38,114 nucleotides of DNA from a virus. Its lineage: Duplodnaviria; Caudoviricetes. Shown in pieces: positions 23,165-33,505 of the stretch. Under the pieces are notes generated by a model. The model searched no databases. It had not been told where the DNA came from and saw only the letters and a list, made by a program, of their open reading frames with translations. Location of the stretch: positions 1 through 38,114 of the IMG/VR virus record IMGVR_UViG_3300009095_000007; one strand, given 5' to 3'. The translations under genes were made by a program, and so were the position numbers. Every line of letters begins with the position of its first letter. The first letter of the stretch is position 1.

Positions 23165-23709
23165 TGGTAACAGTTTGCTCTGGCTTTGGCACTGGCTATG
23201 GCTCTGGCATTGGATCTGGCATTGGATCTGGATCTGGATCTGGCATTGGAGCTGTCTATGGCACTGGCTATGGCTCGGGGGATGGGGATGGCTCGGGGGA
23301 TGGCTATGCCGATGGCAACGGCTAATTTTAACAGGGTTTTTGAAATGAGTGATAGTAAAGGGGTTCCTGAATGGACGGCTATGTAAGGGTATCAGCTGGC
23401 TATGGCTTTGGCTCTGGGGTTGTTTCTGGCTATGGCGATGGCTATGGCTATGGGGATGGTTCTGGCTATGGGGCTGGCTATGGCTATGGGGATGGTTCTG
23501 GCTCTGGCGATTCGAAGGGCTCTGGCGATTCGAAGGGCTATGGGGATGGCTATGCCGATGGCTATGCCGATGGCTATGGCTATGGCTAATGTTAATGAGG
23601 CTTTTGAAATGAGTGATAGTAAAGAGGTTTCCGAATGGACGGCGCTGTAGAGGTAACACCTAACTGTGGTTATGGGGCTGGCTCTGGCTCTGGCTATGGT
23701 GATGGCTAG
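23149..23709 (+). repeat. Three tandem cassettes encoding Gly-X repeat peptides (ORFs 23149-23325, 23371-23589, 23635-23709)
   Basis: Each starts ATGGACGGC (MDG) and consists of GGCTAT/GGCTCT/GGGGAT hexamers; the cassettes are separated by a conserved spacer TTGAAATGAGTGATAGTAAAG.GGTT.C.GA. Confidence 0.75.
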
Positions 23710-28793: not shown

Positions 28794-29459
28794 ATGACAG
28801 AAGACGTTCAAGAGCAAATGGAAAAGGCGCCAGCTCAAAATAATGATGCTGAAAGAAACTTCGCCAACTTGCGTAAAGCATTGGAAGAAGAGAAGCGATC
28901 GAAGCAGGCTCTTGAGGAGCGATTGGCGCGCATTGAAGCAGAGAGAAAGCAAAAGACCGTTGCTGTGGAAGAGGATGACGATGATTATGATGAGCCCTAT
29001 ATCAACAAGTCTAAGCTCAAGCGTGAGCTTTCCTCTATGTATCAAAAAGCAAAGGAAGATGCCAAAAAGGAGGCAGTCTATGAGTTTCAAAGGACGATGC
29101 AGGAGCAGAGACAACAAGACTGGATTCGAAACAATCCCGATTTCTATGATGTCATGCAGCACGCGCAGAAGTTTGCCGAGCAAGATCCTGAGTTGGCTGA
29201 AACGATTCTTGCGATGCCAGAAGGCTTCGACCGTCAAAAACTCGTGTATAGAAACATTAAGGCCATGGGTCTTCACAAGCCCAAGGAAGAGAAGTCGAGT
29301 ATACAGACTAAAATAGATGGCAATCGTAAACCTCTTTACTACTCTCCTTCTGGATCATCAGCCGCACCTTACTCTGCAGCTGGGGACTTCTCCTCGACTG
29401 GACAGAAGTCAGCGTATGACAAGATGCAAGAGCTTAAGAAGTCATTAAGGTTGGGTTAA
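28794..29459 (+). CDS. Putative head scaffolding protein
   Basis: Highly charged coiled coil (NFANLRKALEEEK) immediately upstream of the capsid gene. Confidence 0.7.
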   Translation: MTEDVQEQMEKAPAQNNDAERNFANLRKALEEEKRSKQALEERLARIEAERKQKTVAVEEDDDDYDEPYINKSKLKRELSSMYQKAKEDAKKEAVYEFQRTMQEQRQQDWIRNNPDFYDVMQHAQKFAEQDPELAETILAMPEGFDRQKLVYRNIKAMGLHKPKEEKSSIQTKIDGNRKPLYYSPSGSSAAPYSAAGDFSSTGQKSAYDKMQELKKSLRLG

Positions 29460-29487
29460 TTGACTAAAATAAACAATTTCATATAAT
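29460..29487 (+). promoter_or_regulatory. Capsid operon promoter TTGACT-N16-TATAAT
   Basis: Near-consensus hexamers about 190 nt upstream of the capsid ATG. Confidence 0.65.
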
Positions 29488-29680
29488 GATTCCCACGCAG
29501 CGACAGCGTTATCATGCAAGCGTAATACCCTTCGCAAAGGTAGCGTCTCAGTTGAAGGCCGACGGGCTCACAGACTAGAGATGCGGCATGCGGCACATTA
29601 GCTACGTAAGGCATGTTTTCTAAGACGTACAGTCCTCTCGTCAAGGTCAAAAACAAGTATTTAACTATTTGGATTTGACT

Positions 29681-32381
29681 ATGTCTATTACAAACACAGG
29701 AAACTTAGGACCTATGATCCTCCAGTCGCTTGCGCCTGCGATGTTATACGTGCCTACGCCTTCCTTTAACTACATTTTGGTGTGTGACAAGGTGTCCATG
29801 CCAACTAATGGTGGAACGACTTGTCGTTTCATGAGACCTAGGGCGCTTACGCCTCCTACGGTTCAACTTGGAAATTCTGGGATCGATGAAAACCTATGGT
29901 GCGTCGATGTAAAACCTTCTCTGATTGACTTGGAACTCCTCGATGAGGACAACAGGGCGCAAGCGAAAGCAGCGTGAACGACTAAGTGAGAAGGGGCCGA
30001 AAGGTCATGCGATAGTCTGAGCTCATGGGTAACTATGAGAGAGAAATCCGAAGAGGTTTCCCCGCCTTATAAGCTGCGGGTCGAAAAAGTAACAGAGTGC
30101 CACCAGCCCAAGTGCCACAGCGCGATATCATCGATTAAGGCGCAAATGGCGTTCTTCGGTACGGGATGTATCATAAATGAACAAGTGATACTCCAGGATC
30201 AAGAGGGTTATAGGTTTATAGCAGCTTAACTTGTATTTGTGAGTAAATAGTACACCGTGATATAATTCCCGTCAAAAGGAGTTTTTCATGCAGGAAGAAA
30301 TAGATATGGCATATGCGGCAGGAATATTAGACGGAGACGGGAGTTTCTCAATAATGAAAGCTCATGGGAAGTATTACCCATGCATTCAGTTGAGTAATGC
30401 TCATGAGGGCATGTCTAAGTGGTTACATGAAAAATTTGGCGGCTCTTTAAGACTTAAAAAGCCTCAGAAAGACCACTATAAGACTCTTTATGTATGGTCA
30501 GTGAGGAGCCTTGAGGGATGTAGGCGTCTTATTGAGCAGATTTCTCCCCATATCGTCTTAAAAACGCTTCAGGCTAAGTGTATGTTGGATTTTGTTGGCA
30601 AAAGAAGTGAAGGTTGTTTTTGTGAAATAGATGGAGAACGGTTTTCGTTTCGGATGAAGGAGTTAAATCGTACCATTTTATTAGGCAGCGACAGTCTCAA
30701 TCAACAGTCCATAAAAACTACAGATTGTCCTAAGTTTTGGTCATATGTGGCAGGGATTATGGACACTGAGGGATCTTTTTCGATTAAAAAAGAAAAGCCT
30801 CACTCAGGAAGTGTGTCTACGAGATACAACCCCATTATCCAGCTAACTATGGTTCCTTCGGCCGTTTTAAACTTTATTCGTGCAAACTGTTCGTTGGGGA
30901 GTTTTTGCATCCCTAAAGCAAAATGTACGACCAAAGGTTATGCGTATAAAATGTCTATAGGTAGCAAGGATGAATGCATCCATTTCCTTCATAAGGTAAA
31001 AAACTATTTGCGATTTAAAAAGGGCCAGCTTTTCACTTTGTTAAACTTCTGCGAGAATTATTGCTCAGTGAGGTTTTGCAGAGGAGGAACTCCTAGAGAA
31101 GTTTTAGATTTCCGTGAAGAGATGTACCAACAAATGCGGCTATTAAATAAATAACACGCCCTCTTAGCATAGCTAAAATGGTGTTAGCGTGGGTCTCTGA
31201 AAGACTTGCGGTAGCTATGCGCCAGGCTTGAGATAGTAGGCCTGGATAAACTAGATCTGATTGACTTGGAAGGCTAAACCGAAAGGCATGCCGACAGGGC
31301 GGAACTCGCAAGAGACCGTGAGAGACTGAGTGATCTGGAGCCGAAAGGCTATGCGACAGTCCGAACCATCCAACGAAAGGGGTGGAGATAGGCAGAAATG
31401 ACCTATCCACATCGAAAGATGGGGTAACAGATTGGAAGATCTAATTTTGAGAGACTACATCGTATCCGCAGCTAGCCAAATTAACGCTAGTGGTGGATCC
31501 AACGGTAGACGAAAGGTTGTTGCCGTTGTTAAATCTTCTCTGATAGACTTGAAACTCGCAGCGTAAAGACGGCGACAACAAGGGGCAAGATTATGACTGA
31601 TTGGTTGGTAGAAAATTTAAATGCGCGGGAAAGGCTGATGTATAGAATCGCCATCACAAACGCCAAAGATCCCGAATTAGTGGATAATTCATTCTATCAT
31701 GCCTTCGGAAGGGATCAGCCTGAACGTAGCAAGCGAGAAGACCCCGAAAGGGGATGCGGTGCTCTGAACACTAGTGAAAGCTAGTGAGCTAGGTGCAATA
31801 GGCCTGGCCGCCTAGATGTTTGTAGTCTAGGTCACAAAAGTAACAGATTAATGGACAACCCAACCAACCTAGGAGTCTCTGACTTCTCGTTGGTTGCAGC
31901 AACACTCGATACTAACAACGCCTATAAGTTTATGGCGGGTATCGAAGGTGAAGATAAGTTTGGAACAGGCCCTGTACGCTCTGCATATTTTATGCTTAGC
32001 TCTACAGAGCTTCAAACTGATTTTGATGGTCTCACTGGCTCAGGATTCATTAGCCAATGGAACTATCCTACAAACGCATCTGCGCTTCCATCAGAGTACG
32101 GTACTGTTTATAACATCCGTATCCTGGCAAGCTCAGAAGCACCAGTTTCTAGAAGTAGCTCTGCTAACTCTAGAGACGTGTATTATAACACAGTAGTTGG
32201 TAAGCAAGCGGTAACGCACATTAACCAAGACGGGTACAGTATGAACCTCATTTATAGAGATCCATACTACTCCGGCATGCGCGCGCAAAACGCGACGCTA
32301 GCGGTTAAATTTGCGCAAGCGCAGGCGATTACTCAAGATACTGCGATCCGAAACCTACTCTGCACACGCAGCAGCAACTAA
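29681..32381 (+). CDS. Major capsid protein (N4-gp56-like), 319 aa after splicing: join(29681-29887,30100-30135,30140-30208,31181-31228,31435-31506,31854-32381)
   Basis: The joined exons read ...QLGNSGID|PPAQVPQRDIID|AQMAFFGTGCIINEQVILQDQEG|VLAWVSERLAVAMRQA|EDLILRDYIVSAASQINASGGSNG|DNPTNLG...GEDKFGTGPVRSAY... with no stop. Every junction is phase 0, follows a T and removes a segment ending in G. Confidence 0.88.
29888..30099 (+). ncRNA. Group I intron 1 (212 nt, complete core, no ORF)
   Basis: P1 AUCGAU/GUCGAU with U.G; P10 UGGUG/CACCA; P3 CCUUCUC/GAGAAGG; P7 GACUA(29980)/UAGUC(30013); P8 GGCC-GAAA-GGUC; P9 hairpins; terminal G. Confidence 0.92.
30136..30139 (+). other. 4-nt intervening sequence TAAG (candidate satellite micro-intron)
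   Basis: Creates an in-frame stop and a frameshift. Removal restores DIID|AQMAFF, and the ligated junction pairs with the intron 1 IGS over 11 bp. Confidence 0.65.
30258..30281 (+). promoter_or_regulatory. Extended -10 promoter (TGATATAAT) and RBS (AAGGAG) for the endonuclease
   Basis: TGnTATAAT at 30258-30266; AAGGAG at 30276-30281; ATG at 30288. Confidence 0.65.
30288..31154 (+). CDS. Double-motif LAGLIDADG homing endonuclease
   Basis: AYAAGILDGDGSF and SYVAGIMDTEGSF motifs in an intact 288-aa ORF. Confidence 0.93.
   Translation: MQEEIDMAYAAGILDGDGSFSIMKAHGKYYPCIQLSNAHEGMSKWLHEKFGGSLRLKKPQKDHYKTLYVWSVRSLEGCRRLIEQISPHIVLKTLQAKCMLDFVGKRSEGCFCEIDGERFSFRMKELNRTILLGSDSLNQQSIKTTDCPKFWSYVAGIMDTEGSFSIKKEKPHSGSVSTRYNPIIQLTMVPSAVLNFIRANCSLGSFCIPKAKCTTKGYAYKMSIGSKDECIHFLHKVKNYLRFKKGQLFTLLNFCENYCSVRFCRGGTPREVLDFREEMYQQMRLLNK
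31229..31434 (+). ncRNA. Group I intron 3 (206 nt, complete core)
   Basis: P1 CCAGGCU/GGCCUGG with U.G; P3 CUAGAUC/GAUCUGG; P7 GACUG(31324)/CAGUC(31357), covarying with intron 1; shares CUGAUUGACUUGGAA and the GUAACAGA..G end with intron 1. Confidence 0.92.
31507..31853 (+). ncRNA. Group I intron 4 (347 nt; about 120-nt insertion in P6; atypical P7)
   Basis: P1 CAACGGU/GCCGUUG; P10 GGUUGUU/GACAACC; P3 UCUUCUC/GAGAAGA; P8 CCCC-GAAA-GGGG; ends GUAACAGAUUAAUG. Confidence 0.88.
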
Positions 32382-32392
32382 GGAGGCGTATC

Positions 32393-33505
32393 ATGACTGA
32401 GTATTCAAAAATCGCTCGAGGTACATTTACCTCTACTGGAGCTGCAAAGGCTATTTACTTGCCTTTTCAGCCAAATATTATCCGTATGACAAACTATACA
32501 GCAGCGGCAACACCTGCACAAAACGGGTGCCCTTTTGCTAATTGGGATGTCGGTATGGGCCAAGGTGGCGGAGTGATGCAAATCTTCAACGCTACTCCTG
32601 TTCTAACTACTGATAATATTACAACCAACGGTTTTAGCACTTTCAGAGCTGGTCTTGACTTCAACTTTGGAGCTCAAATCCAGATCTCTGGAATCACTAA
32701 AGCCTCCCCTGCTGTTGTAACTACAGCTTCGGCTCACGGTTATTCAACAGGTGATGTGGTGCTATTCCAAGGTCTTGCACAATCTAGCACAACTGGTATG
32801 CAACAGATCGCAGGAATTCCTTTCACAATTACTGTGACAGGCTCTACTACATTCACTATCCCTTGGAACACAAACCAGTCTAACTACACAGCTCTGTCCG
32901 GATCTCCTACAGGCGCATACGTGAAAAAGGTTCTTTATCCTTTTCTCTATGCTCCTCAAGGATCTGTGGTAAGTGCGGTGACAACTGGTACAACAACTAC
33001 AATTGACACAGCGATGGCGCATAACCTCGTTGTTGGTCAAGAAGTGGCGTTTCGTATTCCAAGTTCATGGGGAATGACACAGTTGAACTCTCTACCTAAC
33101 ACCACAATTCCAGGATCTCCGATCTATGGATATGTGACAGCAGTAACAGATTACAACACTGTCATCGTGAACATTGACTCCTCTAGCTACACAGCTTTCA
33201 ACAGTAACCAAACTTTTGCAAGCGTAGCAGCCGGTCTCAGTTTCCCTATGATCGTTCCTGTAGGCGATGTAAACTCAGGTGGCGTGGCTTATAGCGGCGG
33301 CAACCTGTACCCTTCTCCTTACACAATCCCAGCAGCTGCTCAGGTACCGTCTATCAACGGCCCTGGCATCTTGGGATGCTTCTTTAACAACACTCGTCAA
33401 GGGTTTGTTATCGGAGCTGGAACAGCTGTAACTTTAACCTCAGCAGTTCTCGTCGGTGCAAACTCAGATGTAATTTTCTGGGAAGCAATGCTTACGGATA
33501 TGTAG
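32393..33505 (+). CDS. Virion structural/decoration protein with two FCCH-like beta domains
   Basis: ISGITKASPAVVTTASAHGYSTGDVV and AHNLVVGQEV motifs; AAGGAGG RBS directly after the capsid gene. Confidence 0.7.
   Translation: MTEYSKIARGTFTSTGAAKAIYLPFQPNIIRMTNYTAAATPAQNGCPFANWDVGMGQGGGVMQIFNATPVLTTDNITTNGFSTFRAGLDFNFGAQIQISGITKASPAVVTTASAHGYSTGDVVLFQGLAQSSTTGMQQIAGIPFTITVTGSTTFTIPWNTNQSNYTALSGSPTGAYVKKVLYPFLYAPQGSVVSAVTTGTTTTIDTAMAHNLVVGQEVAFRIPSSWGMTQLNSLPNTTIPGSPIYGYVTAVTDYNTVIVNIDSSSYTAFNSNQTFASVAAGLSFPMIVPVGDVNSGGVAYSGGNLYPSPYTIPAAAQVPSINGPGILGCFFNNTRQGFVIGAGTAVTLTSAVLVGANSDVIFWEAMLTDM

Follow-up and report, generated by a model that had tools for sequence, protein, structure and literature searches.

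By definition, a group I intron carries its own catalyst. Phage group I introns with a homing endonuclease are among the closest known systems (PMC3984707) and exhibit a U.G wobble at the 5' splice site, a guide forming helices P1 and P10, a terminal G and an endonuclease gene placed in a loop with its own promoter-like site. Engineered systems additionally provide precedents for the core and excision chemistry considered below (PMC2532722, PMC2709566 and PMC4094466). In trans excision-splicing, for example, the nucleophilic attack comes from the 3' G of the ribozyme, and a segment as short as one G can be excised (PMC2532722). Here, an element is described from IMG/VR record IMGVR_UViG_3300009095_000007, of which positions 1 to 38,114 (38,114 nucleotides (nt), hereafter the window) are classed as a complete 38-kb virus with terminal repeats. 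The element (30209-31180, plus strand) interrupts the gene for the major head (capsid) protein and shares the above features with phage introns. Unlike them, it lacks a P3-P9 catalytic core and carries instead a short tether to the exon beside the next intron. Comparative evidence makes it likely that this core-less element is spliced in cis by the borrowed catalytic core of that next intron (intron 3), as was proposed by an earlier annotation made from the letters alone (the sequence-only reading).

Spliced alignment of the head gene reveals five inserts, after codons 69 (212 nt), 81 (4 nt), 104 (972 nt), 120 (206 nt) and 144 (347 nt), and the gene is organised as follows.

29681-32381, plus strand: major head protein gene, 319 amino acids (aa), six exons; PHROG 1357.
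29681-29887, 30100-30135, 30140-30208, 31181-31228, 31435-31506 and 31854-32381, plus strand: exons 1 to 6 of the head gene.
29888-30099, plus strand: intron 1, after codon 69, a complete group I intron; its guide (29900-29909) fits sites 69 and 81.
30136-30139, plus strand: 4-nt insert after codon 81, which follows U, contains a stop and has G as its last base; intron 1 is the predicted agent of its removal.
30209-31180, plus strand: intron 2, the satellite, a core-less insert behind capsid codon 104, flanked by U on its 5' side and terminated by G.
31229-31434, plus strand: intron 3, after codon 120, a complete 206-nt group I intron with no long open reading frame (ORF); predicted host ribozyme.
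31507-31853, plus strand: intron 4, after codon 144, a complete group I intron.

Removal of the three complete group I introns, of the 4-nt insert, on which the sequence-only reading is silent, and of 30209-31180 restores a 319-aa major head protein, which aligns end to end with those of intron-free relatives (score 1530 for relative L001 vs 1567 for the window). In genomes, matches to the capsid are contigs binned with unrelated taxa, and no cultured phage matched the capsid protein in the search. Capsid genes broken in this manner are likely annotated as pseudogenes. The possibility that the insert is not spliced at all, with the gene being dead or the ribosomes bypassing the insert, is regarded as highly improbable: the record is that of a complete virus with terminal repeats, the exons are conserved, the guide covaries with the junction and, contrary to the rules of ribosomal bypass, no in-frame landing codon matches the take-off codon. 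No RNA run was listed among the sequencing runs searched for 29400-32400, which speaks neither for nor against splicing.

The layout and coordinates given for the element by the sequence-only reading hold on recheck; the features of the element and its surroundings, including some beyond that reading, are as follows.

30209-30229, plus strand: read-through peptide in the capsid frame, ending Ala-Ala-stop; predicted ssrA-like degradation tag, of putative function.
30237-30266, plus strand: promoter-like site for the endonuclease gene, with -35 and extended -10; consensus match only.
30288-31154, plus strand: endonuclease gene for a two-motif LAGLIDADG protein of 288 aa, lying in the loop that separates the 5' splice site from the guide.
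31152-31165, plus strand: guide, comprising the P10 strand (31152-31157), the wobble G (31158) and the P1 strand (31159-31165).
31167-31175, plus strand: 5' strand of the tether, the exact complement of 31212-31220.
31180, plus strand: terminal G of the satellite.
31188-31210, plus strand: predicted exon hairpin enclosed by the tether helix.
31212-31220, plus strand: tether target in exon 4, 1 nt before host P1.
31222-31250, plus strand: host P1 and the 5-nt linker to P3, with the exon strand at 31222-31228 and the guide at 31239-31245.

The 972-nt element is preceded by U, and its last base is G. Full pairing of the guide with the spliced junction as P1 plus P10, an early claim, was reproduced at 14/14 positions (13 Watson-Crick pairs and the U.G), and the first three bases of this guide are the stop codon of the endonuclease ORF. 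It is the sole 14-mer on the plus strand of the window with at least 12 Watson-Crick pairs to the junction; among 2000 shuffles of the element, one gave a guide site with at least 12 Watson-Crick pairs and 15 gave any 14/14 site counting G.U. Downstream of the guide lie 15 nt, whose 9-nt tether complementarity, likewise noticed earlier as standing 1 nt from the 7-base-pair (bp) P1 of intron 3, was reached in 0/20000 shuffled tails. Among the 26 elements compared, P1 with the U.G at the 5' splice site spans 8 bp in 24 (the other two are cut by contig ends), P10 spans 4-7 bp in 26/26 and covaries with the exon, and every element ends in G. A local hairpin over the element's 5' splice site is not stronger than in shuffles. 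The promoter noticed in the leader corresponds to a sigma-70-like site with an extended -10, identified by consensus match only.

Rfam scans, proposed with the sequence-only reading as a check, do list no core in the element, but they are uninformative because the complete introns 1, 3 and 4 are equally missed, no group I intron being listed in the window. A family-specific core profile was therefore built from 43 short full introns of relatives, with the window introns kept outside the training set. As positive controls, introns 1, 3 and 4 of the window are found by this profile (E 8e-45, 2e-29 and 1e-16), while the element, ORF included, gives no match at E<=10 on either strand, which bears out the earlier claim that it has no P3-P9 core. 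Beyond introns 1, 3 and 4, no other convincing core occurs anywhere in the window, and no P7 5' word was found in the element. The same holds for the family, as 0/28 distinct inserts at site 104 match the core profile on either strand at E<=10, and the short forms of 30-56 nt are too small to contain a core. LAGLIDADG maturases exist, and a protein splicing factor of this kind, or else a hidden or unusual fold in the ORF, might remove the element independently of intron 3. Small inserts of 63-75 nt in fungi, reported to self-splice with a P7-like helix (PMC3160393), would favour such a fold. Nevertheless, this explanation has a very slender chance of being correct, given the lack of a core match, the existence of 30-33-nt forms made almost entirely of guide, tether and linker with no ORF, and the strict dependence on a neighbour that it leaves unexplained.

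Covariation identifies the introns of the intron 3 type as genuine group I cores: across 23 relatives, P3, P4, P6 and P7 show covarying pairs and the G-C guanosine-binding pair is invariant, 91% of the cells in the host core alignment are paired, and 19/23 pairs change on both sides. Dependence on such a cored neighbour is indicated by the family of site-104 inserts, which includes 13 long forms (946-987 nt) with an intact endonuclease, remnants of 93 and 325 nt, and minis of 30-56 nt, all retaining the guide, a tail of 15-18 nt and the final G. In a blind set of 114 distinct genes chosen solely by their flanking exons, a cored intron at codons 105-122 is present in 11/11 genes with a site-104 insert vs 11/103 without (Fisher p 1e-9; the genomes are related, and p-values that are not independent overstate the case). 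The first blind set gave 9/9 vs 5/63, and when any core-less insert is considered together with a cored intron downstream of codon 88, the counts are 30/30 vs 10/84 for genes without an insert. In the blind set, hosts are found alone and satellites never are, the cored host being located 38-54 nt downstream.

Core-less inserts of 29-67 nt with the same anatomy are also observed at codons 88 and 91 (L004:4983-5029, L011:4652-4694, L076:4644-4684 and others), with hosts 26 to ~170 nt downstream. A metagenome pattern scan yielded mostly chance matches (35/162 pooled loci encode the capsid), and L218 was dropped owing to a weak alignment. An exact-pattern scan of one collection for cored introns bearing the same guide gave 52 stretches, of which 2 are in capsid relatives (L294 and L321); these have nearly the same guide, sit at codon 176 of more distant capsids, after an exon ending in the same six bases, and represent a possible source of the satellite guide. 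No cored intron with this guide at codon 104 was found in that scan.

The tether follows the host intron. Hosts sit at three positions, 38, 48 or 54 nt downstream of the satellite (codons 116.2, 120 and 122; the window at 120), and each tail was compared with the 11 nt abutting host P1 at every possible position. The element's own host position gives the best tail pairing of the three in 26/26 elements, 25/26 tails beat shuffled tails at p<=0.05, and the free best duplex abuts host P1 in 22/26, compared with 10% of shuffled tails. The satellite guide ends 0-3 nt before the tether, and the tether target 0-1 nt before host P1. Covariation of the tether in related phages, suggested earlier as a check, is found as compensatory changes in all three host classes: L043 and L109 vs L038 (116.2), L093, L092 and L037 (122), and L284 vs the window (120). 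Further, the two endonucleases closest to that of the window (70% and 68% identity) occur with hosts at 122, whereas the window has its host at 120, and the other endonuclease clade has hosts at 116.2, 120 and 122; because host sites thus differ within both clades, the tether was rewritten more than once. When folding is constrained to keep the guide in P1, the tether is formed in 26/26 elements (median 8.7 pairs vs 1.9 for shuffled tails). Among held-out inserts (n=9), the stretch abutting host P1 ranked first in 5 and within the best three in 7, and pairing there was weak in 2. The tether-enclosed exon folds more strongly than in insert-free genes (8 vs 62 sequences), and host P1 is stronger than the P1 of other introns (median -11.2 vs -9.0 kcal/mol). 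L180, whose contig ends in host P1, was left out of the host-position comparison and of constrained folding, as was L152 of the latter (same 3' end as L118); L147 and L152 (cut) were left out wholly of the comparisons of P1/P10 energy and of host ORF and codon positions.

These observations also bear on splicing in trans, wherein any freely diffusing excised intron (1, 3 or 4) would act on the satellite and the tether would merely fold the exon. A core can use a guide supplied in trans (PMC2709566) and the gene contains three cores, yet the tether specifically abuts the P1 of the next intron and moves with that intron, and upstream or distant introns never replaced the nearby downstream host in the 11 blind cases. 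Such a route is accordingly considered quite improbable.

Several points weigh against the borrowing of a neighbour's core. Most of the site-104 set came from a pattern that forced a short tail, and only 11 inserts were found blind. In 3/26 elements the best duplex lies 11-12 nt from host P1, at a slightly better upstream site, and in 1/26 host P1 is broken by a mismatch. Unconstrained folding of 31145-31262 gives no tether; it appears only with the guide held in P1, and this P1 must close across ~940 nt. Some tethers at site 88 are weak (L076, L025 and L436). Given the co-occurrence in relatives, the tracking of the host in every element compared and the compensatory changes, the proposal that intron 3's core is borrowed through the tether is nonetheless supported.

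Mechanistically, the tether helix and the P1 of intron 3 would form a hinge placing the base of the satellite P1 where host P1 leaves for P3, and either P1, the satellite's or the host's, could then dock in the active site. The sequence-only reading likened the tether and host P1 to the P2/P2.1 helices, and the Tetrahymena P2/P2.1 comparison describes the same topology. The likeness is reasonable because host introns have no P2 and pass from P1 straight to P3 via a ~5-nt linker. Two host introns at codon 98 (L012:4829-5625 and L100) have an extended P1 followed, before P3, by an additional helix that holds a LAGLIDADG gene in antisense; read by eye, this indicates that the family tolerates a branch at this location, and the satellite tether appears to adjoin the extended P1.

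Regarding the order of events, it had been held that the satellite must splice before intron 3 leaves. This is not necessary, as removal after excision may be feasible while intron 3 still pairs with the ligated exons, and the balance leans mildly towards intron 3 excising first. Under this order, intron 3 would remain paired to the ligated exons after excision (predicted at -17.8 kcal/mol), and its freed 3' G, already in the site, would attack the 5' splice site of the satellite; the satellite G would then enter the G site and the exons would be ligated, in the manner of engineered trans excision-splicing. Intron 3 and the satellite would leave as one joined RNA and skipping of exon 4 would be avoided, and ribosomes in the capsid frame would stop in the satellite leader and thus could not strip the paired exons. 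The host P10 gain does not exceed that of other introns (-5.9 vs -7.35) and hence lends no support to this order. The same borrowed core might instead act on the satellite first, its P1 docking in the unspliced precursor and free guanosine attacking, so that the satellite leaves before intron 3. This order is considered possible but the less probable, even though host P1 is strong as a lone hairpin with no raised P10 gain, satellite P1 can form before the host core is transcribed, and engineered introns in tandem offer a case in which the downstream core acted in cis on a distal 5' splice site upstream (PMC10136302). The terminal G of intron 3 would compete in the second step, skipping exon 4; P10 loss merely reduced splicing in the engineered tandem introns (PMC10136302); and transcripts losing intron 3 first would reach a dead end if the host-first route did not operate as well.

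The codon-81 insert points to a second activity, in this case of intron 1. The insert, which measures 4 nt in the window, varies between 1 and 4 nt among relatives and invariably has a final G, and 10/10 distinct genes harbouring it also possess the codon-69 intron; conversely, every codon-69 intron in the first blind set is accompanied by it. The guide of the codon-69 intron pairs with the exon sequence on either side of site 81, the first three bases of the 3' exon all being paired, and removal of the insert by intron 1 is predicted on these grounds. Moreover, in the four genes with a 1-nt codon-81 insert (L038:4663-4704, L043, L075 and L105), codon 95, which encodes an invariant glutamate in 67/67 other genes, is missing its first G, and a stop is reached both in the unedited frame and when only the codon-81 G is removed. 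The sequence preceding codon 95 pairs with the same guide at 6/7 positions in all four genes, as compared to 7/67 other genes and 0/6 with 2-4-nt inserts. Nucleotidyl transfer and trans insertion-splicing are established reactions of group I ribozymes. On the simplest reading, the excised codon-69 intron would take the G onto its 3' end and insert it at codon 95. The four genomes are close kin, and the codon-81/95 pattern may represent one event; a search for further codon-95 deletions returned 9 stretches, 6 of them on contigs already in the set and 3 not capsid.

The LAGLIDADG ORF noticed earlier in the element is a candidate homing endonuclease of 288 aa, with a PF00961 match of 31.9 bits (cut-off 23.1), two LAGLIDADG motifs with acidic residues and 3e54 as the nearest solved structure (E 0.0013). 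It is intact in 13/13 long forms, where changes concentrate at third codon positions. Its nearest relatives outside site 104 (46%, 42% and 34% identity) are encoded before the guide in cored introns that interrupt the same gene at codons 123 and 90 and share the satellite layout of tag, promoter-like leader, gene and guide. This suggests that the satellite descended from such a cored intron by core loss, or by cassette exchange. A single clade for the site-104 endonucleases is neither shown nor rejected (p-value of the approximately unbiased (AU) test, p-AU 0.23), and the tree does not decide descent. L048:4777-5937, L057:4784-5937 and L063:3691-4962 are cored introns with a related endonuclease before the guide, and may be possible satellite ancestors. 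Hosts of long forms are small (196-338 nt) and carry an ORF of at least 140 aa in 0/12, while those of mini forms lack such an ORF in 6/11 and exceed 400 nt in 8/11, a distribution that likely reflects a division of labour with mobility residing in the satellite and splicing in the host. Given its intact ORF, the endonuclease would cut insert-free capsid alleles, and repair would copy the satellite along with the small host intron 48 nt away (38-54 nt in the family), the pair thereby spreading as a unit. Homing of the satellite without its host would be lethal, and co-conversion of the nearby host would be expected.

Read-through from the capsid frame ends in Ala-Ala-stop in 36/43 core-less inserts, 37/93 cored introns and 1/278 off-frame controls (L147 and L152 were left out of the count at and before site 104). 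This ending is presumably akin to the ssrA tag, and would send capsid fragments made from unspliced RNA to a protease. In the window, the read-through peptides of introns 1 (29888-29977), 2 (30209-30229) and 4 (31507-31566) all end in this way. A transcript from the internal promoter (30267-31434) would contain the guide, the tether and intron 3 with no 5' exon, i.e. the layout of a trans-splicing ribozyme. Upstream of the capsid gene, 29460-29680 comprises a promoter-like site together with a leader of 190 nt, in which short motifs are shared by 68 relatives; this region has no Rfam match, and plain alignment gave no consensus fold. Elsewhere in the window, the ORFs of 23165-23650 are short, repeated and of low complexity, with an abundance of Gly, Tyr, Asp and Ser.

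Taken together, there is about an even chance that the locus combines a two-piece mobile intron, in which the endonuclease satellite provides homing, the host splices both and the tether is rewritten upon a change of host, with an excised intron acting as a natural editor of messenger RNA, which removes 1-4 nt at codon 81 and, in four relatives, inserts a G at codon 95.

Among known systems, engineered trans excision-splicing (PMC2532722) and spliceozymes (PMC4094466) are close in chemistry, since a group I core likewise removes a core-less segment ending in G. These act in trans with the guide on the ribozyme, whereas the present arrangement is natural, predicted to operate in cis and carries the guide on the removed piece; the codon-81 insert is closer to trans excision-splicing, as it would use the ribozyme's own guide. 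Exon skipping by the Twort orf142 and Coxiella 23S tandem introns (via PMC10136302) also involves one core acting on its neighbour's splice site across a short exon; however, both introns there are cored and the exon is lost in a side reaction, while the present reaction would preserve the exon and be indispensable. The degenerate PaSSU introns of fungal small-subunit (SSU) ribosomal DNA (rDNA) are also tiny inserts with P1, P10 and a helix between insert and 3' exon (PMC3160393). The PaSSU type is described as having P7, ending in U and involving no helper intron or endonuclease, in contrast to an element that ends in G, has no P7 word and retains 15 nt after the guide. In collaborative homing, a free-standing endonuclease mobilises an ORF-less intron (PMC3984707), as the satellite endonuclease would; the difference is that its gene lies inside an essential gene and would need that intron for removal, making the dependence mutual. 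No natural intron spliced by a neighbour's core was found in the open-licence PMC and bioRxiv literature, most subscription papers being outside this scope. Removal of the 1-4-nt inserts, like the predicted G transfer, would exemplify in nature a type of reaction found in the literature search only for engineered ribozymes. If true, a natural intron reduced to address signals and served by its neighbour's core would be the splicing counterpart of a non-autonomous transposon, and with an endonuclease added it would be either a mobile element parasitic on another parasite or one side of a mutual partnership. A 14-nt guide, a 9-bp tether and a G could then suffice for a ribozyme to excise ~1 kb of any sequence, which would make the design both compact and programmable.

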